IMG/VR virus record: IMGVR_UViG_3300025000_000061
Coordinates: 1 to 64,000 of that record
Reading direction: 5' to 3' (one strand)
Length of the DNA: 64,000 bases
From: a virus
Below, one piece after another: positions 38,821 to 50,138 of this stretch. The number at the start of each line of letters is the position of its first letter. Position 1 is the stretch's first letter. A program made the position numbers and the translations under genes. The notes beneath the pieces were generated by a model, which saw nothing but the letters and a program-made list of their open reading frames with translations, did no database searches and had not been told where the DNA came from.

Positions 38821-39301
38821 GGAAAAGGAGAATAGATATGTTTAAGAAAAGAAAAGATGTTATTGTTTTGGATAAACATTTGACACGTTTAGAATCATCA
38901 CCTAAAGATAGTAGACCAAATTATAAATATTCAATCACAAATAATAAGCAAGTTGCGCCAAAATTAAAATGTTGTCCTATTTGTGGAGAATTAGAAGATA
39001 TTGCAACTAGATATGAGAGTTGGAGTATTGATTTTCATTGTAACAAATGTGATTTTAATGGTTCTGTAGATTATTTATGGATAGAAGAATGGGAACCTAA
39101 TGTGAAGGGTGAGGAAGTGCTGTTTTAGGTTGTTTTAGATTGTTTTAGGTGGAAATTAATTATAAAATGGTAAGAAAATATTAAATATTAGTAAAATAGT
39201 AAAATAAATATTCCATAATAAGGTATGAATAGGACATGTGTTGGACAGAATACTATTATAATATAAGAAACAAAATATATTATAATAGGAGAGTGAATTG
39301 A

Positions 39302-39724
39302 TTGAAAATATTACATAATGCTCAGTGTTATAAGCAAGATAGGGAGTTGGATTGGAGAGGGTGGTGTCCGAAGAGGGGTGAGATTTATTTGTGTCAATTG
39401 GGTAATGAAGGTCTTATATATTCAGAGATTAAGGGGTATCGTCCCGTATTGGTTGTGTCAAATAACATAGCAAACAAACATAGTCCAGTAGTTTCTATTA
39501 TACCATTAACTTCTAGTCAAATAAAAAATAATAATATGCCTGTTCATGTTAAAGTAGGAGTAGAAGAAGGGTTACGAACTTCGAGTTTAATTTGTTGTGA
39601 GCAGACTAAAACCGTATCTAAAAATCGTATGTTCATAAATGGTAGTTTAACTAGAATTTGTAAATTGAGTAGTAAATCGATGTGTAAAGTGGACGAGGCA
39701 ATACGAATACAATTTGGATTGTAA
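39302..39724 (+). CDS. mazF: MazF/PemK-family endoribonuclease
   Basis: PKRGEIY, SEIKGYRPVLVVSNNIANKHSPVVSIIPLTS, HV, S.ICCEQ.KTVSK.R. Confidence 0.92.
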   Translation: MKILHNAQCYKQDRELDWRGWCPKRGEIYLCQLGNEGLIYSEIKGYRPVLVVSNNIANKHSPVVSIIPLTSSQIKNNNMPVHVKVGVEEGLRTSSLICCEQTKTVSKNRMFINGSLTRICKLSSKSMCKVDEAIRIQFGL

Positions 39725-39873
39725 ATAAATTGGGAATAGATTATAAATATAAATTATAATATATATTATCATATATTATAAAAGGGTGTGATGTCTTTGA
39801 TTGTGTAAAAATAAATTAAAAAGTTATTGTGTTTAAATTGTATCTATTAAAAAATAATATAAAAGGAGGATAT

Positions 39874-41412
39874 ATGTTAGTAAAAAATCAAAAAGTTAAA
39901 ATGAATTGGAGTGGAAGTAATAGAAAACATTATGAATTAAAAGGATATCCTTTTACTAATTATAATGATGAATTTGAAGTTAAAATAGAGGATTTAGCAC
40001 CAAAAAGTCAAAAATATGTTTTGATTAGATGTGATTATTGTGGGATACCTTTTTTGAGAAGGTATGTAAATCATAATACAAGAAAAGAGAAATATGGTAT
40101 AAATGATAAAGATTGTTGTGATGATTGTAGAGCATATAAAAGAGAAGAAACATGTTTAGATAAATATGGTGTTAAAAACGCTGCTCAGACAGAAGAAATA
40201 CAAAATAAAATAAAAAGAACAATTAAAGAAAAATATGGAGTAGAATATATTTCTCAATCAGAAGAAATTAAAAACAAAAAGAAACAAACTTGTTTAGATA
40301 AATATGGAGTAGAATATACCTTACAAGTGCCAGAAATTAGAGAAATAATTACAGAAACTAATATAAATAAATATAGATGTGAAAATCCATTTCAAGCAGA
40401 AGAAATTAAAGAAAAAATAAGACAAGTCAATATGGATAAATATGGAGTTGAATATGCTTCCCAATCTTTAGAAGTGAAAGAAAAAACCAAACAAACTAAT
40501 TTAATAAAATATGGGAAAGAATACTACTTACAAACAGATGAATACAAAGAAAAGATTAAACAAAATAACCTAGACAAATACGGAGTAGAATATTATTCAC
40601 AAACAGAAGAATATAAAAACAAATATAAGCAAACCTGTCAAAATAAATATGGTGTTGATAATGTTTCACAAGTTCCAGAAATTGCAGAAAAAATTTCACA
40701 ATCACGTACAAAAGAATTTAAAGATTTGACAAATATAAAATTTAACCATTTAACAGTAATTTCTTTAGTACCTGATAAAACAAATAAGCACCATGATAGG
40801 TATTGGCTATGCGAATGTGATTGTGAAAATAAAACTAGAAAGGAAATTTCAGAAAATCATTTAGTTAGAGGAAATATTAAAAGTTGTGGGTGTATACGAA
40901 AAGAATCATTAATTGAAAGATGGGAAGGTAAAACAAAAAAGGATATATATCCTTATTACAAAGAAATATATTGTACATATGATAGTATGAGAAAAAGATG
41001 TTATAATGAAAAACATGATAATTATAAAAGATATGGTGGTAGAGGAATAATTATTTGTGATGAATGGTTGAATGATTTTATGAATTTTTATAATTGGGCA
41101 ATAAAAAACGATTATAAAGAAGGATTAACTATTGAAAGAATTGATTATGATGGCAATTATGAACCTGATAACTGTAAATGGGCAACATGGGAAGAACAAA
41201 GTTATAATAAATCAAATACGTTATACATAGAAGTAGACAATGAAATGAAAACAGTTAAACAATGGTCTGATGAAACAGGGATACCTCAACATATAATATA
41301 TCAAAGATATGCCAGATATAAAAGAAAAGATAAAAAAGAATTAGAGTTATTAACTAAAGAAAAATTCTTTAAACCAGTTAGACAACTCAAAAGAAAGGGT
41401 GATGTTGTCTGA
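39874..41412 (+). CDS. homing endonuclease-like protein: Zn ribbon, KYG repeats, HNH-type C-terminus
   Basis: About 8 repeats of T.L.KYGVEY..Q.EE.K.K; YWLCECDC, KSCGC, MRKRC, YGGRGI, TIERID..GNYEPDNCKWAT..EQ..N; start moved to 39874 behind AGGAGG. Confidence 0.85.
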   Translation: MLVKNQKVKMNWSGSNRKHYELKGYPFTNYNDEFEVKIEDLAPKSQKYVLIRCDYCGIPFLRRYVNHNTRKEKYGINDKDCCDDCRAYKREETCLDKYGVKNAAQTEEIQNKIKRTIKEKYGVEYISQSEEIKNKKKQTCLDKYGVEYTLQVPEIREIITETNINKYRCENPFQAEEIKEKIRQVNMDKYGVEYASQSLEVKEKTKQTNLIKYGKEYYLQTDEYKEKIKQNNLDKYGVEYYSQTEEYKNKYKQTCQNKYGVDNVSQVPEIAEKISQSRTKEFKDLTNIKFNHLTVISLVPDKTNKHHDRYWLCECDCENKTRKEISENHLVRGNIKSCGCIRKESLIERWEGKTKKDIYPYYKEIYCTYDSMRKRCYNEKHDNYKRYGGRGIIICDEWLNDFMNFYNWAIKNDYKEGLTIERIDYDGNYEPDNCKWATWEEQSYNKSNTLYIEVDNEMKTVKQWSDETGIPQHIIYQRYARYKRKDKKELELLTKEKFFKPVRQLKRKGDVV

Positions 41413-42008
41413 TTGAATTTATTATAGGAGCAATTTTATATGCAAAATATAAAAAGAAATATAAATTAAAATACATATTTAAATACCCATACATATTTGC
41501 AATAATACCACCTTTATTATGTGCCTTACTATACATATTTATAGAAATATCAGTTTGGAATCAATGGTATTGGTTTTTACCATATCAACATATAATAAAA
41601 ACTACAACTTTGTTAAGTTATATACCTTTACTTTATATATATAATCTTTATGAAAATGATAATCAAAAATACATAAATAATAATATAATGAATGTAGTTA
41701 CTTCACCTATGTTTAAAGCAGGATTCTGCTTATGGTTAGGTTCGACATTAAATAAAATAGTTATAAATGCTAACAATGGTATGCCAGTTTTCCCTAGTAA
41801 TACATACTGGACTGGTTACGCCAAACCAGATTTATTTAATGATGGTATACATATATTAGGTAATGCTTATACAAAATTAATTCCTTTGTCAGACTGGATT
41901 GATATTTTTTACTCGGTGATTTCCCCAGGAGATATTTTAATTCGTATGTATGTTTTTTTAATTATATATTATGCTATAAAATATTCTAATAAATTATTAA
42001 TAAAATAA
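41409..42008 (+). CDS. DUF5317-family membrane protein (likely CTG start)
   Basis: Frame open from 41403; LIEFIIGAILYAK..., LN..VI.ANNGMPV, H.L, L.D.I, SPGD motifs; SD AAAGGGTG. Confidence 0.8.
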   Translation: MIEFIIGAILYAKYKKKYKLKYIFKYPYIFAIIPPLLCALLYIFIEISVWNQWYWFLPYQHIIKTTTLLSYIPLLYIYNLYENDNQKYINNNIMNVVTSPMFKAGFCLWLGSTLNKIVINANNGMPVFPSNTYWTGYAKPDLFNDGIHILGNAYTKLIPLSDWIDIFYSVISPGDILIRMYVFLIIYYAIKYSNKLLIK

Positions 42009-42048
42009 TAAAATAAATGTTGACACTTAAACAACTCTATGGTAATAT
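42002..42048 (+). promoter_or_regulatory. sigmaA promoter for sensor-agrD with upstream motif variant
   Basis: AAAATAATAAAATAA 42002-42016; TTGACA 42020-17-TGnTAATAT. Confidence 0.7.
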
Positions 42049-42080
42049 ATAAATAGAAAATTACTAAGGGAGTTGGTTAT

Positions 42081-42881
42081 GTGGAACAAAATATTATAAA
42101 TGCGATATTGAATTTTTTCACAATTAGTTTGTTCGAGGAGTTAGGTATAGTTTTACTAATTTTAATATTTTTAAAAAGATTTGATTTACTTGATAAATAT
42201 ATGTGGAGATGGAATATAAAATGGATAATTTTGCCTACAATTTTAACGTCATTCTCCATAAATATATTTATATACATAATACCAAATTTTATATTAAAAT
42301 TTTTTGTTTCTATTATTGTTTTATACTTTTCTATAAATTATATCTTAATTAAAACAGACCCATTAGATGAAAAAATAAAATGGTATAAAATATTAATCAG
42401 TATAATATTAAGCATAGTTATGATAACAAGTGCAGAAATAATATATTTACCAATAATGCTTCAATATGTTAATCAACCAATAGAAATATTGAATAATAAT
42501 ATGTTATTAAAATTTATAGTAAGTTTGCCAGCAAAAACATTTCAAGTGTTATTGATTTATTTCATGTATAAAAAACATAATCAAAGTGAAAAATATGTTT
42601 CTAATATTTTAAAAGATAGAATATTATCTTTAGTTACAATTAGTTTTACTGGTTTAATATTGTTTGCTTTAACATGTATAGTAAAAATTGTAATTAGTTC
42701 AGAAATGATTGGTAAATATTCAATACAAACTCAAATGATGATTAGTGTATTAATAACAATTGTACCAACAATACTAATATTTCTTTATATCATACCAATT
42801 AATTACCTATTATCACGATTATTCAGAATACAACAGAGTTATCAACAAATGTATGATGATGTTGATGATACTGATGTATAG
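42081..42881 (+). CDS. multi-pass membrane protein resembling an AgrC sensor domain, lacking the kinase domain
   Basis: About 7 hydrophobic segments, immediately upstream of agrD, no H/N/G boxes. Confidence 0.6.
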   Translation: MEQNIINAILNFFTISLFEELGIVLLILIFLKRFDLLDKYMWRWNIKWIILPTILTSFSINIFIYIIPNFILKFFVSIIVLYFSINYILIKTDPLDEKIKWYKILISIILSIVMITSAEIIYLPIMLQYVNQPIEILNNNMLLKFIVSLPAKTFQVLLIYFMYKKHNQSEKYVSNILKDRILSLVTISFTGLILFALTCIVKIVISSEMIGKYSIQTQMMISVLITIVPTILIFLYIIPINYLLSRLFRIQQSYQQMYDDVDDTDV

Positions 42882-42913
42882 ATACAATGAATTGAAAGGA
42901 GGTGAAATTTATT

Positions 42914-43039
42914 ATGAAAAAATATACTCTTTTAGTCGTAGCTGGTTTTATTGCTTTAGTTGCTACTGCACTTACTAATTCCGTAGCATCTTTCATGGGA
43001 TTGAATCAACCTAAGAGTCCTTCTATGTTAGTAAAGTAA
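42914..43039 (+). CDS. agrD: cyclic lactone autoinducer peptide precursor (41 aa)
   Basis: MKKYTLLVVAGFIALVATALTNSVASFMGLNQPKSPSMLVK; SD AAAGGAGGTG; leader, S-X4 ring, xQPKxP tail. Confidence 0.9.
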   Translation: MKKYTLLVVAGFIALVATALTNSVASFMGLNQPKSPSMLVK

Positions 43040-43055
43040 TATGACTACATAGAAA

Positions 43056-43093
43056 ATTCTAAAGTAGAGTGTTTACTTCCTCTACTTTAGAAT
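43056..43093. terminator. 14-bp perfect stem-loop after agrD
   Basis: ATTCTAAAGTAGAG-N10-CTCTACTTTAGAAT. Confidence 0.75.
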
Positions 43094-43179
43094 AAAAAAA
43101 TAATATAAAAACTATTGTGTTCTATATTAATATATGGTAACATATAGACAAGAATATAATAAATAAGGAGTGGTAAAAA

Positions 43180-44055
43180 ATGATGTTATTTAATAAAAAA
43201 GAAATTCTTAAAAAAGATAATCTTGTGGATGATAAATTTAAAAAAGAGATGGCATTTTTAGTATTTAAAGCAAAAGGTAGACGAAATATTGAACAATTCG
43301 TAAAAGACATGAAAATGTTTGATCCTACACCAATCGTTAATTTAATAAATAAAAATTATAATGAATTACCTGATAGAAAATTATTAAGGAAAATAGCCGA
43401 TAATAGTATGGGAATGGTTAATTTTAGGATATTATATGATCTCTGTGGTTACTCCGAGAGAGATCCTGAAGAAGATCGTAGTTGGATAAAATGGGTTCCA
43501 AGATGGGCAGAAGTTTATATGTGTGATCTAGGCATAGGAGAGGATTGTATTCAAGGAGGGAAAAGAAATGTATTAATAATTCAAAATAATAAAGGCAACC
43601 AACACTCACCGAATGTATCTATATTGCCAATATCCAGTAAATGTAAATTTAACCATATGCATATACTATTAGAAAAAGAATTGGGTTTTGAAAGGGATAG
43701 TTACGCATTGTCAGAAATGCCATTAACTGTAAGTAAGAGGAGGTTCTTTTATAATACAGTACCTTATAAAATTACAACACTTTCAGATTTTAAAATGAAA
43801 GAAATACAGGTATGTCTTGAGAAACAATTTGGATTTTTACCACTTTATTTTGACGTAGAACATGCATTTGAACTAGTCAGACATATAAAAAATCTAGAAC
43901 AAAATATAAAAATCAAAAAATCACATAATTTAGTAGATATTATGGAAGATAAATTAAATGACCTAAAAGAATACTGTTCAAAATACAAAAAGAATTATCA
44001 ACATTACCTACAAGAATACGATAGAATCAATAACTATGGTATTCAAGCAATATAG
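43180..44055 (+). CDS. extended MazF/PemK protein with N-terminal Xre-HTH-like region and C-terminal helical extension
   Basis: KAKGRRNIEQF..P..KLLRKIA..LYDLCGY, then PRWAEVYMCDLG..IQGGKRNVLIIQNNKGNQHSPNVSILPISS. Confidence 0.8.
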   Translation: MMLFNKKEILKKDNLVDDKFKKEMAFLVFKAKGRRNIEQFVKDMKMFDPTPIVNLINKNYNELPDRKLLRKIADNSMGMVNFRILYDLCGYSERDPEEDRSWIKWVPRWAEVYMCDLGIGEDCIQGGKRNVLIIQNNKGNQHSPNVSILPISSKCKFNHMHILLEKELGFERDSYALSEMPLTVSKRRFFYNTVPYKITTLSDFKMKEIQVCLEKQFGFLPLYFDVEHAFELVRHIKNLEQNIKIKKSHNLVDIMEDKLNDLKEYCSKYKKNYQHYLQEYDRINNYGIQAI

Positions 44056-44126
44056 TGTAAATACTATATTTCTTCTATAAAATATTAATAATAAACAAAA
44101 AACAAATAAAAGGAGATGTTCAACAA

Positions 44127-44600
44127 ATGATTAACGAACACAAATTAAAGTATCTATGCAACAAATATGGTATTAATTATCAAGTATTTCATGCAACAGA
44201 TACCATATTAATAGATGCAAAATTAGATATATGGGAGGTGAAATATTATGAAGAAATACAAAAAAAATTAAATTTATTATACAATAAACAAAAAGAAATT
44301 CAATTGCAATTATTATCTCCTGTATTAGATGAACCAATTAAGAAAAAATTATTATATGAATATGAAAAAATAAACAAAAAAATAAAAGAAACAAAACCAT
44401 ATTATTTACTTCATAAAAATAAATCTGATAATAAATTTAGCAATCAGCACACACAAGGATGGAAGAAAAATTTATATCAAGTAATAACTTTTATATTAGC
44501 ACATAAAAGAGTTTTATATGGCATCCAATTAGGAAAGCCATATATACATAAGCACAATATTAAAATAAATAAGAAGGGAAAAGTATGTTTAAATACATAA
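44127..44600 (+). CDS. hypothetical protein overlapping the agrB start
   Basis: 157-aa ORF with SD. Confidence 0.7.
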   Translation: MINEHKLKYLCNKYGINYQVFHATDTILIDAKLDIWEVKYYEEIQKKLNLLYNKQKEIQLQLLSPVLDEPIKKKLLYEYEKINKKIKETKPYYLLHKNKSDNKFSNQHTQGWKKNLYQVITFILAHKRVLYGIQLGKPYIHKHNIKINKKGKVCLNT

Positions 44601-45271
44601 GATACCTATTAACATTCCGATATATCAAACTAATATCCTATATATCTGCTAAATATCTTCATAATAAAATACCTGTATTCCCACTAATAGATTCAAAAGT
44701 TTTATTAAAATTTTTACCAAAAAATATGTTAGATTTATTTGAAAATTTACATCAACAATCTAAATTAAAACCATATAAACTTAAATATGTTTATTACTAC
44801 GGTTGTCAAATCATCATAGGAGGCATTAACAAATTCCTACTCTTAATCACACTAGGCATCCTACTCAACATCCTCCCATATCTCATACTAACAACAATAT
44901 CATTCGTATCATTGCGAATTTGGTCTGGAGGGTTACATTTTGACTCTTACTCTAAGTGTGCCTACATTTCACTCTTATCATTTACAATCATGGCACTATT
45001 AGCAAAATACATCTACATATCAACCATACCTACTATATTAATATTCTTAATTGTCTTAATTTTAATTCTATTATATGCACCAGTAGAGCATCCCAACAGA
45101 CCAATAAAAAATAACGAAAAAGTTAAATTTAAATTAATTTCAATTTTCTCATTGTTAATATTACTATTAGTTATTTTATGCGTAAATAATATTATTATCT
45201 GTAATTCTATAGTGTTTGGAGTGCTATTAGCAGGTATAATTATGTTGCCTATTATAAACAAACTGAAATAG
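44585..45271 (+). CDS. agrB: AgrB-family autoinducer-processing peptidase
   Basis: YG.QII, LR..SGGLH....C (catalytic His/Cys), YAPVEHPNRPI, several TM segments. Confidence 0.93.
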   Translation: MFKYIRYLLTFRYIKLISYISAKYLHNKIPVFPLIDSKVLLKFLPKNMLDLFENLHQQSKLKPYKLKYVYYYGCQIIIGGINKFLLLITLGILLNILPYLILTTISFVSLRIWSGGLHFDSYSKCAYISLLSFTIMALLAKYIYISTIPTILIFLIVLILILLYAPVEHPNRPIKNNEKVKFKLISIFSLLILLLVILCVNNIIICNSIVFGVLLAGIIMLPIINKLK

Positions 45272-45388
45272 TTGTTAACGCAAGTATATAAAAAGTCGAA
45301 AAATGTCGCTAGGTAATTGTTGTCTATATGTGAAATTTTATGTAAAATAATATACAATAAAATTATTAACAAAATTCAAAAAAAACAC

Positions 45389-45435
45389 TTGTTCTTTTGT
45401 TATCAATGTATTATAATTGGACGAACAGGTGTTCT
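45389..45435 (+). promoter_or_regulatory. sigmaA promoter followed by a LexA (Cheo) box
   Basis: TTGTTC-17-TATAAT (45412-45417); CGAAC-AGGT-GTTCT 45422-45435. Confidence 0.75.
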
Positions 45436-45472
45436 ATAAATAATAACATAATAATATTAGGAGGAGATTGCA

Positions 45473-45703
45473 ACGAATAGTGAAAAAATTTATACAATCA
45501 AAGATGAAAAAGGTAATTTTGTTCATGGTGATGGTATTAGAAAGATCGGCAAAGAATATTATTATTTGCCATATGAAAGTTTAAAAGATGGCTGTATTGT
45601 TTATACTAATAAAATAAGAGTAGAGAAGGCTCTGAATAATCTTGAAATACATAATCGATTAGGTGAGTTAGGACATAAATTTATTATTGAACTTGTCTCT
45701 TAA
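45473..45703 (+). CDS. small unannotated protein (about 76 aa, ACG or ATT start)
   Basis: AGGAGG, then an open frame TNSEKIYTIKDEKGNF...FIIELVS*. Confidence 0.55.
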   Translation, partial: TNSEKIYTIKDEKGNFVHGDGIRKIGKEYYYLPYESLKDGCIVYTNKIRVEKALNNLEIHNRLGELGHKFIIELVS

Positions 45704-45732
45704 TAAGATAAAAATAATAACTGACTTTCCTA

Positions 45733-45761
45733 TTGACATAGTATGAAGATACATATATAAT
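45733..45761 (+). promoter_or_regulatory. sigmaA promoter of the yopQ/mrpR-like operon
   Basis: TTGACA-17-TATAAT; degenerate motif AAGATACATATATAA 45746-45760. Confidence 0.8.
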
Positions 45762-45809
45762 AAGTATTAATGATTATTATATATAATTTAAAATGAGAGG
45801 TGAAGAATT

Positions 45810-47183
45810 ATGCTTAGTATAAAAAATGCTATGTTAATAGGAGAGTTAAAACCACTAATATTAAAGTATGGCAACAATTCAAAAATCTATAACATTATAC
45901 AAGAGGAATTTATTAAAAAAGGGTTATCTGGTAGCAATGCAAAAAACTTACTAACAGGTAAAATTGCTTTAGAAACATTAGATATTACCAATCAAAAAGA
46001 ATTATTCTTATTATTTTCTTTTACAGATGCTATGAAGAAAGCACTAAGTACATTTGATGAAATGTCCAAGGACACTTTTGGCATGGAAGAGGAATATATT
46101 AAATTAAAATTAGAATATTATTTTACACCCATAGAGATTGAAGAATTTACAGAATTCGTTATAGAGAAAGAAGAAGTAAGAAAATATCCGTATAGATTAA
46201 GAAATATGTTAAAAGTAGGAGAAAATCATTATATAGGGATTATAACTTCTAAAGAATTAGCCGAAATAGATTCTACTAATGATATAGTATATGACTTTGC
46301 AACACAAAGAGATCCTAAAATTGATATATTTGGAATGAGACGTATTAATGTTGACACAAGAAAAATTGATGCAATTGAAAAAAGTTTACTTGCTGGTGAA
46401 TATTTTTCAGATGAAATCAAGTTGAATGTTAAGAATGATGGAGAAGATCATATCGAATTCGATTCAAAGGACGGAATTTATGGTGATCTTATTATTCATT
46501 CAGGAACAATAACTTGTTTTGATGGCTATCACAGAAAAACTGCCAATTCTAAAGCGCAAAATAAAAATAATGAATTGCAATTTAACTGGAAGTTAGGTGT
46601 CACCAATTATCCAGAACCTAAAGCAAGAAAATTTATGACACAGATTAATAAACAAAAACCTATTAAACGTGAATACGTTAAAAATATTGATGAAACAAAA
46701 AATGAAAATACAATTGTCAATAATATTATTAATAATTCTAATTCTGAATTTGCCGATAAAATTAAAGAATCTGATGCAGAATTAAAATTTAGTGGTTTAA
46801 CTAAAAAATCTATATTATCTCTAGCAATAGAAGAACAATATGAAGAATTTTTAAACACTAAAATTTATAATATTGAAATCTCTAATTGGATAGTAGACTT
46901 TACAAATTATTTAATGGGACTATATCCTAATGAATTTTTATTTAATGTAGACAAAACTAAAAAAGTAAGTTATATTAATAATAGAAATATGTTCATAGGT
47001 TATATTGCACTTTCAAGAAAGTTATATAAGCAAGATGATTGGAAGAGTAAGACCGTTAAAATAATGAACAGTATTGATTTTAGCATTGAAAATAGCATAT
47101 GGAAGAATATTCGTATTGATGATAATATTTTAAATAAAACATCAAGAAAAGAATTATATAATCTATTTATAAAGGAGGTGTAA
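45810..47183 (+). CDS. DGxHR (DndB/ParB-like) domain protein, SPbeta YopQ-like
   Basis: Y...TQR, I.LN, FDGYHR, F.QINKQKP motifs; 457 aa; precedes an integrase-like gene. Confidence 0.7.
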   Translation: MLSIKNAMLIGELKPLILKYGNNSKIYNIIQEEFIKKGLSGSNAKNLLTGKIALETLDITNQKELFLLFSFTDAMKKALSTFDEMSKDTFGMEEEYIKLKLEYYFTPIEIEEFTEFVIEKEEVRKYPYRLRNMLKVGENHYIGIITSKELAEIDSTNDIVYDFATQRDPKIDIFGMRRINVDTRKIDAIEKSLLAGEYFSDEIKLNVKNDGEDHIEFDSKDGIYGDLIIHSGTITCFDGYHRKTANSKAQNKNNELQFNWKLGVTNYPEPKARKFMTQINKQKPIKREYVKNIDETKNENTIVNNIINNSNSEFADKIKESDAELKFSGLTKKSILSLAIEEQYEEFLNTKIYNIEISNWIVDFTNYLMGLYPNEFLFNVDKTKKVSYINNRNMFIGYIALSRKLYKQDDWKSKTVKIMNSIDFSIENSIWKNIRIDDNILNKTSRKELYNLFIKEV

Positions 47184-47186
47184 ATA

Positions 47187-48251
47187 ATGGTAAAGCATAA
47201 AAATGGTAAGATTAACTTAGCAGAGAGAGTATTTAAACATGATAGAGATGTTAAAGAAGAATTTTTAAAAGATATTAAACCATCAACTGCAAAAACTATA
47301 AGAAGCATACTTTTTAAAGTAGATGATTATGAAGATCGAATCGGTAAAAGTATATATGATTTTACCTTTGAAGAGCGTGATGATTTCTTTATTTCTCAGT
47401 TTTGTAATAAAAGTAAGGGCGTTATTAATACAACAAGATCATATTTAGTAAAGTATATTAACCATTGTATTGATAACAACCTTGTTAGACATATGGAGAA
47501 TAGGTTTGATTTAATTTCTAAAGATGATATTGATAAATATATTAATGATACTGCAATGCAAATGAAATATCTATCTAGAGAAGAAATTAAAGAAGCACAG
47601 GATAAATTAGTTAATAATTGTGATAAGTTAATTTTGCAATTAATACCTTTGTCTGTCAGAGGGCGTACAGAATTGAATAATACTAATGAAGAATTAATTA
47701 ATTTGAGAGTAAAAGATGCTGAAGAATCTTATGAAACAGGTATTTTGCATGTCTGGAATAATGACGGTGATAGAAGACCTGTGAAAATTGATGAAGAAAC
47801 AATAGAATTATTGAAAAAGACAATAAATGATGATAGTTATATTATTAATAACGGAAGCATTTATGATAAAAAAGGGAGAATACTTGGCAGGGGTATCGGA
47901 GAAAAATGTTTTCCTTTAAATGATACTGGTTATGTATTTAGAACTGCTGGTAAGAATAAAAAAGGAAAAGTTAAAACTAATTTTTTTGGTTCTAGGATGA
48001 GAATAATGAAAACCTGGACGATGAATCCATTTATCACCGTAACGAATTTGTATTATTCTGGAATTATCGATTATGCTATGCAATTAAGAAAAGAAAAAGG
48101 TACAGAATTAGATAATCATGATTATATTAAAATAATTGATAAGTTTTCTTATGGTAAACCACAAATACTATCAAACAAAGAATTAGATTGGAGTGTACCA
48201 ATATCAAAAGTAAAATCTATGGTGGAAGATTATATTAATAGAAAATTATAA
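47187..48251 (+). CDS. tyrosine-recombinase-fold protein without catalytic HxxR, MrpR/YopR-like lytic-cycle repressor
   Basis: KEEFL..., E....K.IYDF, YLSREE, DKLIL..VRG..EELINLRV.D; TNLYYSG in place of HxLRHS. Confidence 0.75.
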   Translation: MVKHKNGKINLAERVFKHDRDVKEEFLKDIKPSTAKTIRSILFKVDDYEDRIGKSIYDFTFEERDDFFISQFCNKSKGVINTTRSYLVKYINHCIDNNLVRHMENRFDLISKDDIDKYINDTAMQMKYLSREEIKEAQDKLVNNCDKLILQLIPLSVRGRTELNNTNEELINLRVKDAEESYETGILHVWNNDGDRRPVKIDEETIELLKKTINDDSYIINNGSIYDKKGRILGRGIGEKCFPLNDTGYVFRTAGKNKKGKVKTNFFGSRMRIMKTWTMNPFITVTNLYYSGIIDYAMQLRKEKGTELDNHDYIKIIDKFSYGKPQILSNKELDWSVPISKVKSMVEDYINRKL

Positions 48252-48263
48252 AGAGGTGATAAA

Positions 48264-49145
48264 ATGGCAAAAGACGTTAATTTATCTGATTACACTGATA
48301 TAGAAGTTTATAATATGCTTAGATTTGGTATTATAGGTAGATTTCCTAATAATTTTTGGGGTGGTTTAGATACCTTTAAAACTGCAAAAGATTTAACCAA
48401 GTATATGTTTGAAAATATTCTCAAATGGGATATAGAAGATATTAAAAATAATACAACAGCAGATATTTTTTATGACTATAGACTTGGTGGTATGCTGAAA
48501 CAATTATTTAATGGTAATGTTTTAGATGCATTATTAAATGCATATCCAGAATTAGAAGAAGAATGGGTAGAATCTAAAAGAAGGACTAAAAACGAAAAAG
48601 AAGAAGATAAAAGAGAAAAAGAAGAAAAAGAAACAAGAGAAAAATATACAGATGAACAATTGATAGAAAATTTACAGCAAAAATTTAAACAATTAAATAG
48701 AAATCCTTATATAAGAGAAATGTCAGATCCAGATGGAAATGTATATTTAACAAGATTTGGTAGTTGGACTAAGGCATTAATTGCAGCAGAATTGCTTGAT
48801 GATATTTGTGCAGATGTAGATGATTCCGAAGAAGCAATTTATGAAGCACAAATTAAGATTAAAGAATTTGCATATCAATTAGGAAGATACCCTACAGAGG
48901 AAGAAGTTAATGATTTATTTTCACAAGGAGAAATAAAAGTTTATTTTAAATCTTTAGTTGGACTTTATAATTATTTAAATGAAGGGTATACAAAAGAAGA
49001 ATTGATAAATATTTTGGTTGATAAAAGAAATAAATTAGATAGAAATCCAATAAACAAAGATATAAAATTCCCAAGACCAATTATTTTTATTGATAAATTT
49101 GAAAGTTGGGAAAATGCTTTAAAAGAAGCGGGATTAGATAAATAA
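48264..49145 (+). CDS. DUF4046-like protein with homing-endonuclease-associated repeats
   Basis: RFPNNFW..KYMFENILKW..LGGML..AYP; two copies of YT.E.LI..L...P..F.SW..AL..A. Confidence 0.7.
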   Translation: MAKDVNLSDYTDIEVYNMLRFGIIGRFPNNFWGGLDTFKTAKDLTKYMFENILKWDIEDIKNNTTADIFYDYRLGGMLKQLFNGNVLDALLNAYPELEEEWVESKRRTKNEKEEDKREKEEKETREKYTDEQLIENLQQKFKQLNRNPYIREMSDPDGNVYLTRFGSWTKALIAAELLDDICADVDDSEEAIYEAQIKIKEFAYQLGRYPTEEEVNDLFSQGEIKVYFKSLVGLYNYLNEGYTKEELINILVDKRNKLDRNPINKDIKFPRPIIFIDKFESWENALKEAGLDK

Positions 49146-49163
49146 CTAAATCCTGCTTCTTTT
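49121..49163. terminator. bidirectional terminator
   Basis: AAAAGAAGCGGGATT...AATCCTGCTTCTTTT. Confidence 0.7.
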
Positions 49164-49172
49164 ATTTTTAAT

Positions 49173-49415
49173 TTACATATTCTCTTTCCTAATCCATTCT
49201 TCAGCTACCAATCTACACTCTTCAAAACTATTAAATTTAATATTCTCATCCAAAGACATATATACAATAATTCCATTATAATCTATATGAAAATGATAAT
49301 AATTCATATCAGGTATATAATAAATATATACTTTGCATCCTTTTGCTCATCTTGTTTTGCTTGTCCATGTCGGATAAACATTACGTTTTAATATCCTTTT
49401 AAATTTCATTTTCAT
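49173..49415 (-). pseudogene. 80-codon minus-strand ORF with in-frame TGA (49347-49349)
   Basis: SD GGTGGTG; MKMKFKRILKRNVYPTWTSKTR*AKGCKVYIYY... Confidence 0.55.
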
Positions 49416-49642
49416 ATCACCACCTATATATTAATACGTTATTATTTGTAGAAATATGTCGATTATTCTTAATATTATATATTATTTAAAGAATAAATCT
49501 AATGTAATATATGACATTTTATAGGTATAAGTAGTGTATTAAAAATTTGCTAAAAATTCATAAATAGTTGTTGTAATTATTTTAGTATTATGTTAATATG
49601 TATCTAAGGAAAATTTAATTATCGAAAGGGGCGAAATAAATT

Positions 49643-49792
49643 ATGAGTAACACACATAATAAACCAGAGATATTAGTTCCTCCATACGGTGTTTGCTTGA
49701 ATCCACCTAGACTATCTAATCTAAATTGTAAAGATTGTAAGTATTTTGAAGGATGTACAAATGCAAAAAAAGGTAATTATAAGAGTAAATAA
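49643..49792 (+). CDS. small Cys-containing peptide (49 aa)
   Basis: SD AAAGGGG; MSNTHNKPEILVPPYGVCLNPPRLSNLNCKDCKYFEGCTN... Confidence 0.55.
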   Translation: MSNTHNKPEILVPPYGVCLNPPRLSNLNCKDCKYFEGCTNAKKGNYKSK

Positions 49793-50138
49793 AAGTAAAT
49801 TGAATGTTTTCAGAAAATATAGTACAATATATATTAACATTATCTTATAAAGGATGTTGCATATGACTAAAAATAATGATAATTTTAAAACGTATATCAT
49901 TTGTTCAGGTGACAACCTTGGTAATATAGAGACACTCGATTACAGATGCCCGAAGAAAGGGATTCATAAGGGAGATTGTAGATTGAATGGAAAACAATGT
50001 GAGTATTTTTTAGGGATTAAGAATGATAGACTGAATTTTGATATAATGAATATTAAAGGGTATTGTGAGTATATTTTGAATATGAAGTGATAATTCAATT
50101 CAACATAAACATAAACATAAGGAGTGTGATATAGTAAT

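Follow-up and report, generated by a model that had tools for sequence, protein, structure and literature searches.

Gene content and conservation of the region

The stretch of DNA analyzed here (the window, 64,000 nucleotides) is the first 64 kb of the 151,782-bp IMG/VR virus record IMGVR_UViG_3300025000_000061, for which CheckV estimates a completeness of 82%. The record has a GC content of about 24 to 25%, and almost all of its genes lie on the plus strand. Between positions 39,302 and 48,251, the window carries mazF1, an HNH insert, a DUF5317 gene, the gene for a 266-amino-acid (aa) membrane protein (TM266), agrD, a gene that joins a helix-turn-helix (HTH) domain to MazF (HTH-MazF, or xMazF), orf157, agrB, a small open reading frame (ORF) behind a LexA box, a yopQ-like gene, and an mrpR-like gene, in this order (Table 1). 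A first-pass annotation had listed the same order and had proposed a lysis-lysogeny switch in which Agr-type signaling takes the place of arbitrium; all of the listed genes were found where it had put them, and its family calls were all confirmed by family and structure searches. That an agr cassette is built into the lysis-lysogeny control region of an SPbeta-like family of Clostridium phages is well supported.

The kinship of the phage was assessed by comparing SPbeta ORFs with the whole 152-kb record by tblastn. Homologues of the large serine integrase YokA/SprA (27% identity, 7e-35), of YopQ and YopR, and of the replication block YorI-YorJ-YorK-YorL in SPbeta order (YorK, 36% identity, 3e-88) were found, which makes the phage a distant member of the SPbeta-like group. 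No homologue of AimR (yopK/aimR was among the queries; tblastn, 1e-5) or of yopM to yopP was found in the record, in agreement with the earlier proposal that arbitrium has been replaced. Two prophages that carry the cassette are in metagenome-assembled genomes (MAGs) labeled Clostridium sp. and Bacillota bacterium, and other YopQ matches are Clostridiaceae; therefore, the hosts are probably Clostridium-like. A megablast search of GenBank phages with the 9-kb region gave no match.

Using an HTH-MazF alignment as the seed, we collected 59 metagenome loci, 55 of them nonidentical, and read their gene order with custom hidden Markov models (HMMs), counting a gene only where the flank was long enough. 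One order was seen in all: mazF1, a variable slot, DUF5317, TM266, agrD, HTH-MazF, orf157 (where present), agrB, the small ORF, YopQ, and MrpR. TM266 was present in 41 of 41 loci, agrD in 39 of 41, DUF5317 in 34 of 35, mazF1 in 24 of 27, AgrB in 35 of 35, YopQ in 20 of 20, and MrpR in 16 of 16, so that the agr and mazF genes are indeed conserved together with the yopQ- and mrpR-like genes. The arrangement is not due to chance, since it recurs in dozens of diverged loci. When YopQ served as an independent seed, the full cassette was recovered in 8 of 10 IMG/VR loci and in 2 of 5 genome loci; an xMazF-seeded scan of species-representative genomes gave no match. The slot between mazF1 and DUF5317 differs among related loci in length (about 60 bp to 2.6 kb) and in content. 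The 540,969-bp metagenome contig Ga0209518_1000004 contains the cassette twice (L074 and L075), first at its very beginning and again at about 270 kb; it may represent a host chromosome that carries two related prophages, or else an assembly join.

Table 1. Features of the switch region, with positions in the window (AF2, AlphaFold2; pLDDT, predicted local distance difference test; SD, Shine-Dalgarno sequence)
Feature	Position	Strand	Evidence
mazF1, stand-alone MazF/PemK toxin, 140 aa	39302..39724	+	PF02452 2.8e-24; phrog_1936
HNH/DUF7487 homing-endonuclease-like insert	39829..41412	+	PF24308 3.6e-43; phrog_374 3.3e-67
DUF5317 membrane protein, ~199 aa	41409..42008	+	PF17248 3.9e-15
Promoter-like site TTGACA-17-TAATAT with TG, 5' of TM266-agrD	42020..42048	+	
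TM266, 266-aa membrane protein	42081..42881	+	No family match; AF2 pLDDT 85
agrD, 41 aa	42914..43039	+	SD and ring/tail motif
Hairpin, 14-bp stem, directly 3' of agrD	43056..43093	+	Fold z-score -4.28
Promoter-like site TTGTGT ... TATGGTAACAT, 5' of HTH-MazF-orf157-agrB unit	43115..43143	+	
HTH-MazF (xMazF), 291 aa	43180..44055	+	PF02452 1.4e-14; AF2 pLDDT 83
orf157, without known family	44127..44600	+	
agrB, AgrD-processing cysteine peptidase	44585..45271	+	PF04647 7.4e-37
SOS-controlled promoter region	45383..45434	+	Boxes and -10 element
Small ORF (sm)	45468..45703	+	Split by frameshift, A-run 45483-45488
Sigma-70 promoter, perfect consensus TTGACA-17-TATAAT, 5' of yopQ-like gene	45733..45761	+	12/12 matches
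YopQ/SroE-like DndB-type (DGxHR) protein	45810..47183	+	tblastn phi3T 1e-20, SPbeta yopQ 3e-10
MrpR/YopR/SroF-like repressor, tyrosine-recombinase fold	47187..48251	+	MrpR_N_CB (PF22822) 5.9e-14; MrpR_C_cat (PF22823) 3.8e-07

The predicted peptide, the MazF proteins, and the repressor module

The agrD product is a short precursor in which a hydrophobic leader is followed by a Cys or Ser, placed five residues ahead of the cleavage site, and by a conserved tail at the C terminus. This layout is of the clostridial AgrD type, in which the ring is followed by the tail that AgrB recognizes. The motif S(C)-x4-[N/H]QP[K/R]xP, usually continued by SMLVK, was found in 53 of the 59 loci examined. In the window, the predicted ring is S-F-M-G-L, followed by NQPKSPSMLVK. 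Among 51 nonredundant loci, 25 different ring pentapeptides were counted, 24 of which begin with Ser and one with Cys. The curated models stayed under their thresholds (TIGR04223, 14.3 bits against a cutoff of 19; no match to Pfam AgrD), and the AgrD call therefore rests on motif, context, and conservation. From these features, AgrD is predicted to yield a secreted five-residue Ser-lactone ring. The SD sequence GGAGG at 42898-42902 favors ATG 42914 as the agrD start, and the hairpin behind the gene, whose tail is A-rich rather than T-rich, may be an attenuator or a processing site.

AgrB keeps the catalytic His/Cys dyad, with the two residues seven apart (GGLHFDSYSKC from residue 115), and GGxH-x6-C was found in the window AgrB and in 46 of 46 homologues. 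The agrD and agrB genes are separated by the HTH-MazF gene and orf157, and agrB shares a conserved promoter with HTH-MazF, the motif at 43115..43143 being present in nearly all related loci. orf157, which overlaps the start of agrB by 16 nucleotides, is present in most loci and absent from some (L009, L011, and L078).

Both MazF proteins retain catalytic residues. In mazF1 these are Arg (GYRPVLV) and Thr (PLTSS), and in HTH-MazF the catalytic Arg, R129, is invariant. According to its model, HTH-MazF consists of an XRE-type HTH domain (about residues 16-92), a MazF RNase domain (105-221), and a three-helix tail (221-291). In structure comparisons, the first of these gave VIA Z scores of 9.3 to 7 with many XRE regulators, and the second gave a VIA Z score of 17.9 with Staphylococcus aureus MazF (37% identity); the Foldseek match to MazF was at 1.7e-9. 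No MazE (PF04014) was found in the whole 152-kb record. The upstream neighbor of mazF1 (38838-39128) is a 96-aa Zn-ribbon-like ORF with two CxxC pairs and a weak Lar-like match (E 0.014); it is not MazE.

Three of the YopQ-seeded loci, from two related phages (L083 and L091) and a MAG (L082), have a plain MazF gene upstream of YopQ-MrpR and no agr genes, and the small ORF is also present in L083 and L091. Since a MazF gene is kept in these loci, in this lineage MazF appears to be a core partner of the repressor module, and the agr part is a very common yet nonobligatory addition. In L091 (6015-9908), the genes upstream of small ORF-YopQ-MrpR code for a tyrosine recombinase, a 191-aa MazF-like protein, a 199-aa protein, a 253-aa ORF, and an orf157-like ORF. 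The 199-aa protein has a weak tetratricopeptide repeat (TPR) match (TPR_12, 7e-4, below the cutoff) and could be a different kind of sensor.

In phi3T, arbitrium works by modulating the host MazE-MazF system, and a part for MazF in the lysogeny decision has been documented (PMC10769878). Both this precedent and the agr-less loci bear on a different role for the MazF proteins, namely, that they are abortive-infection, superinfection-exclusion, or addiction toxins which the peptide and TM266 keep off among kin or switch on at high density. A precedent is the proposed link between EDF peptides and MazF. In favor of this role, the record has two MazF genes with no MazE, and the fusion of an XRE HTH to a toxin recalls autoregulated toxin-antitoxin modules. 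Pherotype polymorphism this extreme is what kin-discrimination loci typically show, and one of the bacterial TM266-AgrD pairs, outside any phage, has an XRE regulator and a PemK gene in its vicinity. Nevertheless, even in the agr-less L083 and L082 a MazF gene stands directly upstream of the block that ends in YopQ-MrpR, an arrangement that links MazF to the repressor module and not to an independent defense island. Together with the part of MazF in the phi3T decision, this makes such a conflict module unlikely.

The first-pass annotation had proposed the ORFs at 45810 and 47187 as homologues of YopQ and MrpR, and both assignments stood up to tblastn and to the MrpR Pfam domains. The YopQ-like protein matched phrog_5732 (2e-59), a homologue (L009) matched PF14072 (1.2e-12), and D238, G239, H241, and R242 of the D-G-x-H-R motif are invariant. 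The MrpR-like protein matched SPbeta yopR (tblastn, 1.4e-16), and both MrpR domains were above their cutoffs (MrpR_C_cat, 30.4 bits against 27). In an alignment of MrpR-like proteins (A2), there was no invariant His or Tyr in the C-terminal half. A strict scan for 11-6-11 palindromes (at least 10 of 11 matches) as candidate MrpR operators gave 9 unrelated sites against about 1 in shuffled sequences and no repeated family. Comparison with the annotated SPbeta and phi3T regions placed the cassette in the position that aimR-aimP-aimX occupies upstream of yopQ-yopR, just as had been claimed.

Between agrB and this repressor module lies the small ORF. In the window, a one-base frameshift within an A6 run (45483-45488) interrupts it, and the cause could be an assembly error, a mutation, or slippage; in relatives it is intact, with 71 to 132 aa, and the L006 ORF is 73% identical. 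A GAAC-N4-GTTC LexA box directly after the -10 element of the small ORF was seen in five of five loci inspected (here, L006, L007, L009, and L011). In the window, the -10 element TATAAT (45412-45417) lies just before the Cheo/LexA box GAACAGGTGTTC (45423-45434), and there is a half-degenerate box, AAACACTTGTTC, at 45383-45394. In phi3T and SPbeta, the LexA-controlled antirepressor Sar inactivates SroF (bioRxiv 10.1101/2025.11.27.690993). By analogy, and in view of its covariation with MrpR (see below), which parallels the Sar-SroF pairs, the small ORF is a candidate SOS-induced antirepressor; it has no similarity to phi3T Sar (E 23), and it lies upstream of the repressor gene, whereas the Sar gene of phi3T is on the opposite side.

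The two-component system that would read an Agr peptide in bacteria is missing. Neither the 152-kb record nor any of five related phage records, of which one is 100% complete, contained a HATPase_c_5 or LytTR domain, and HATPase_c was found neither in the 152-kb record nor in four related phage records. The lack of a kinase and of AgrA that had been noted for the window thus holds for the whole record. A gene set of this kind without a kinase, placed upstream of lysogeny-repressor genes, suggests a new kind of phage-to-phage communication.

TM266, the peptide ring, and the possible reading of the signal

Pairwise protein identities across loci were used to measure covariation, and three covarying blocks were found: DUF5317, TM266, and the ring; HTH-MazF, orf157, and AgrB (0.72 for HTH-MazF and AgrB); and the small ORF, YopQ, and MrpR (Spearman coefficients of 0.81 to 0.90, with rho values for the small ORF of 0.81 with MrpR and 0.83 with YopQ). 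DUF5317 travels with TM266, and TM266 covaried with neither of the other two blocks. In pairs of loci with the same ring, TM266 was on average 93.5% identical (minimum, 70), compared to a median of 35% in pairs with different rings. The genes downstream of agrD did not follow the ring in this way: HTH-MazF identity went down to 42% in same-ring pairs and up to 98.7% in different-ring pairs, AgrB averaged 80.4% in same-ring pairs (minimum, 54.5) and reached 100% in different-ring pairs, and the corresponding values for orf157 were 75.0% (minimum, 39.1) and 100%. Individual pairs illustrate this. L031 and L032, with rings SASWL and SAAWL, are 99% identical in HTH-MazF, 100% in orf157, and 90% in AgrB, and their TM266 proteins are just 61% identical; L033 and L064 have the ring SAAWS in common, with 99% identity in TM266 and only 43% in HTH-MazF. 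Where the AgrD leaders were at least 90% identical, TM266 was 95% identical (76 to 100) with the same ring and 69.5% identical (58 to 73) after one ring substitution, and where the ring was the same and the leader had diverged, TM266 was still 95 to 96% identical. With the leader controlled for in this way, sequence comparison indicates that TM266 is tied to the ring and not to the leader or the downstream genes.

The same blocks bear on the idea that an agr operon was captured once by an ancestral phage and inherited with no functional link to MazF or the switch. A small set of related metagenomes supplied many of the loci, whose common ancestry may be recent. However, gene order was kept while the proteins diverged to 28 to 40% identity, the three blocks recombine independently yet hold their relative places, and the agr genes are interleaved with MazF genes instead of forming one captured block. 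Mere historical adjacency is therefore very improbable.

TM266 itself was read from its AF2 model and the positive-inside rule as a protein of seven membrane helices with the N terminus outside and the C terminus inside. Its conserved elements are IPEE in helix 1, the loop LKRFDLLD, and an acidic tail. TM266, orf157, the small ORF, and the N- and C-terminal parts of HTH-MazF gave nothing above threshold in Pfam, PHROGs, and NCBIfam. An exhaustive HMMER search of 1.84 billion representative sequences returned 74 representatives related to TM266, of 56 to 320 aa (250 to 320 where full length), none of them fused to a kinase; the nearest Atlas cluster is 76% viral. Two enzymatic identities were rejected on sequence grounds: that of an AgrB-like cyclase, for TM266 has no invariant Cys, Ser, or His nucleophile, and that of a CPBP protease, as it has no EExxxR/His motifs and no Pfam match.

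The most informative relationship is with a family of 149-aa proteins of agr operons. TM266 residues 12 to 172 matched this family in a profile-profile comparison (hhalign, 82%, E 9.9e-06, 146 columns), and a single-sequence hhalign comparison with the 149-aa protein was not significant; the profile match gives the relation moderate but not conclusive support. In both, helix 1 has IPE(E/A) and helix 4 has a conserved membrane Glu, and TM266 goes beyond the 149-aa proteins by about 95 residues, i.e., two helices and the conserved acidic cytoplasmic tail. In a host Clostridium MAG that carries the prophage with the cassette, chromosomal locus L094 consists of DUF5317, a 149-aa membrane protein, AgrB, and AgrD, the last with a Cys ring type and the tail QPEEPKCL. 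Loci of this kind (L094, 1298-3093, and L099, 811-2074, in a Clostridium sp. MAG) code for DUF5317, a protein of 149 to 155 aa, AgrB, and AgrD. Proteins of the 149-aa family occur widely in Clostridium, C. botulinum and C. beijerinckii records among them, and the family has no annotation; one member has a weak match to the SpoIIGA membrane domain (E 0.014). Given the gene order of L094 and the profile match, DUF5317 and TM266 are, with moderate confidence, relatives of two unexplained upstream genes in clostridial agr operons. CPE1563 and CPE1562 are probably the C. perfringens members of the DUF5317 and 149-aa families. In the agr operon of that species, two unexplained upstream ORFs are cotranscribed with agrBD, and complementation of an agrB mutant required all four operon genes (PMC2706048). 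For the DUF5317 gene of the window, full length is reached only with a CTG (41409) or ATT (41412) start that overlaps the stop of the HNH gene, the start of which is probably ATG 39874; relatives have ATG at this place (41409-41414 here), and tblastn with DUF5317 of L006 and L021 covered residues 1 to 199 in a single frame.

TM266 may thus be a receptor or a factor for peptide maturation or export, and the kinship raises a doubtful but substantial alternative in which the phage makes a signal without reading it: DUF5317 and TM266 would mature or export the peptide, AgrB would cyclize it, and a host kinase of the AgrC/VirS type would sense it. In this alternative, the signal would either reprogram host physiology (sporulation, toxins, and metabolism) to the advantage of the prophage or block host quorum sensing as a noncognate antagonist, and the MazF proteins would have a separate role. 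The profile match, the order DUF5317-149aa-AgrB-AgrD in the host MAG, and the four-gene requirement in C. perfringens are in keeping with a signal read by the host, as is the precedent of phiCDHM1, whose agr genes were read as host directed (PMC3901668). Other observations do not fit it as well. The 25 ring variants in closely related phages would each require a matching host receptor, the phage tail QPKxPSMLVK is unlike the host tail QPEEPKCL, and agrB is in one operon with HTH-MazF. The cassette was never at a moron-like variable site but always between mazF1 and the repressor module, and the two extra helices and the conserved cytoplasmic tail of TM266 are absent from the 149-aa proteins.

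Moreover, some TM266 homologues have no agrB in the surroundings examined, and one copy has no agrD of its own. Distant bacterial homologues of 302 to 322 aa with a longer cytoplasmic helical tail (L012, 6001-7049; L092, 4926-6054; L093, 332-1443) are each directly followed by an AgrD-like ORF with S-x4-[H/Y]QPK[A/T]P and the rings SVWCF, SVYII, and SLFGI, and no agrB was seen near these pairs in the sequence available, which extends for about 6 kb to either side in L012 and is shorter in L092 and L093. One of the three lies beside sleB/ypeB and another by gyrase genes, two XRE regulators, and a PemK toxin gene. Locus L087 (3031-7902) is a variant with agrB, DUF5317, a first TM266 (TM266-a), agrD (ring SAFLW), a shorter HTH-MazF, and a second TM266 paralogue without its own agrD, followed by the small ORF, an HNH insert, and YopQ. 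The orphan copy of L087 has no peptide to process, and its place beside HTH-MazF leans, like the extra cytoplasmic tail of TM266, toward a role in sensing or transducing. A complex of TM266 with HTH-MazF was predicted with a score of 0.50 (0.01 for the best of three controls), weak support from a model in a score band that is more often wrong than right. Among solved complexes, 58 of 80 came up to the mark that it reached, against 2 of 110 mismatched pairs, and only 7 of the 80 solved complexes, along with both mismatches, did so with scores of 0.60 or less. The runs agreed in at least 66% of contacts, and the pLDDT of the partners was at least 74.

Several results weigh against a peptide that the phage itself reads through TM266. 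The label of a kinase-less AgrC-like receptor was not sustained, as TM266 has no detectable relation to AgrC, and its kinship with the 149-aa proteins undercuts the label further and makes maturation or export a real rival; indeed, a biosynthetic or export role is at least as natural. In the clostridial four-gene operons, the receptor gene probably lies elsewhere. No informative relative came out of structure searches with the TM266 model (best Foldseek E value in the Protein Data Bank, 1.2; ESM Atlas, TM score by query of 0.40 or less; wide VIA search, best Z of 7.8, coiled-coil-like pieces only), and they neither showed nor excluded an AgrC-like or CPBP/MroQ-like fold. The covariation amounts to only about four to five independent allele contrasts, TM266 and agrD are adjacent genes, and between L031 and L032 nucleotide identity jumps at the TM266/agrD border. 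In addition, processing enzymes, too, can covary with their peptide. The TM266 differences between pherotypes are spread over the whole protein, with no clustering on the predicted outer face (46% against 42% expected). Agr loci are also present in the MAGs of the lysogen hosts themselves, in one case together with a GHKL kinase (AgrC) and a LytTR regulator, and these could read the phage peptide. The agr-less L083, L091, and L082 keep MazF and YopQ-MrpR, and the switch therefore needs no peptide. Finally, many of the metagenome contigs have common sample prefixes and are probably from few studies, and the loci are thus not independent samples of nature.

Weighing these points, we consider the cassette to be an input to the lysis-lysogeny switch that acts through MazF, with a probability of roughly one-half. 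The specific reading in which TM266 is a kinase-less seven-helix receptor that binds the lactone outside and holds or releases the HTH-MazF ribonuclease inside, a pherotype-specific lysogeny setting with at least 25 dialects, is put forward only tentatively. Of the first-pass interpretation, gene content, order, position, co-conservation, and the lack of a kinase stood, and the AgrC-like nature of the sensor did not. Our inference that lysogeny is steered by the peptide, with the MazF proteins carrying out the decision, draws on the position of the genes, operon interleaving, covariation, one weak complex prediction, and the analogy with phi3T.

In a switch input of this kind, AgrB would cyclize AgrD to a released Ser-lactone that infected cells or lysogens secrete, and its level would report the density of phages of the same pherotype. 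A pherotype-matched TM266, with DUF5317, would read the lactone at the membrane or possibly mature it. TM266 would pass its state to HTH-MazF by direct contact through the conserved cytoplasmic loop and tail, and MazF RNase activity, HTH DNA binding, or both would bias the cell toward lysogeny, as host MazF does in phi3T. In parallel, DNA damage would lift LexA repression of the small ORF, the product of which would act as an antirepressor of the MrpR-like repressor. Weakest in this scheme are the direction in which the peptide acts and the role of TM266 as a receptor.

Downstream of mrpR, the window has a 293-aa ORF (within 48264-50090) that is kept in some relatives and has a weak match to a dGTPase-type defense model (E 0.0013). 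In L006 and L007, two small Cys-rich ORFs (49643-49792 and 49854-50090) retain 74 to 79% identity, even where YopQ and MrpR are only 35% identical.

Comparison with known systems

Phage-borne agr genes (phiCDHM1) and peptide communication in SPbeta-group phages are known already. Searches of the searchable literature for agr together with arbitrium, or for a phage-encoded autoinducing peptide together with lysogeny, gave only reviews and phiCDHM1; no paper on DUF5317 was found there, and the function of the two upstream genes of clostridial agr operons is unexplained in it. Four features of the region were not found in this literature: an agr cassette fixed in an SPbeta-like switch region, at least 25 phage AgrD pherotypes, phage-owned MazF genes (one of them HTH fused) in a switch module, and the link of a phage cassette to accessory genes of clostridial agr operons. 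The yopN-yopR operon has been reported to be unique to arbitrium phages of Bacillus subtilis (PMC8612738); the YopQ-MrpR repressor module is evidently also found in Clostridium phages, with an Agr-type kit in place of arbitrium.

In the searchable literature, communication between phages over lysis and lysogeny means arbitrium, with a linear peptide and an intracellular TPR receptor. If the peptide feeds the decision, the cassette would be a convergent viral communication system with different chemistry and a different, kinase-free readout, and it would support MazF as a general executor of the SPbeta-type decision. If, in addition, TM266 is the receptor, the system would be mechanistically unrelated to arbitrium and would reveal what the accessory genes of clostridial agr operons do. 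Whichever holds, the link to TM266 and DUF5317 gives a handle on two agr-operon genes, present also in toxin-regulating species, whose function has been open since 2009, and the covarying TM266-ring pairs are natural specificity swaps.

The closest counterpart is arbitrium of the SPbeta-group Bacillus phages, in which AimR-AimP-AimX lie upstream of sroA-F/yopM-R. Common to both are a peptide gene upstream of YopQ-YopR (MrpR/SroF), polymorphic peptides with many pherotypes, a parallel SOS input (a candidate one here) through a LexA-controlled small ORF, and MazF in the decision, as documented for phi3T (PMC10769878) and, by analogy, suggested by the gene content here. The region differs from arbitrium in having no AimR/TPR receptor, an Agr-type peptide (a Ser lactone predicted to be made by AgrB) instead of a reimported linear hexapeptide, and a membrane protein as the candidate sensor. 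Its MazF proteins are phage encoded, in two copies of which one is HTH fused, whereas arbitrium uses host MazEF; sroA-D (yopM-P) are absent; and the host is probably Clostridium rather than Bacillus.

Staphylococcal and clostridial agr systems share with the cassette the His/Cys dyad of AgrB, the hydrophobic leader, five-residue ring position, and conserved C-terminal recognition tail of AgrD, and a hypervariable specificity region that makes pherotypes. Unlike them, the cassette has neither an AgrC kinase nor AgrA, 24 of its 25 ring types have Ser in place of Cys, agrD is set apart from agrB by a MazF fusion gene and orf157, and TM266 covaries with the ring while AgrB does not. The four-gene clostridial operon (C. 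perfringens CPE1563-CPE1562-agrB-agrD type) is similar in that DUF5317 and a small TM266-related protein precede agrBD in the host Clostridium MAG, but the order here is TM266-agrD followed at a distance by agrB, TM266 is about 95 residues longer, and the host AgrDs have Cys and a QPEEPKCL tail. Lastly, the Clostridioides difficile phage phiCDHM1 (agrD, agrB, and agrC) is likewise a case of phage-borne agr without agrA (PMC3901668; review, PMC11945551). It carries a kinase-type AgrC, however, and its agr genes are read as host-derived accessory genes, whereas the cassette described here has a fixed place in the switch region of a different, SPbeta-like lineage and extremely diverse pherotypes.

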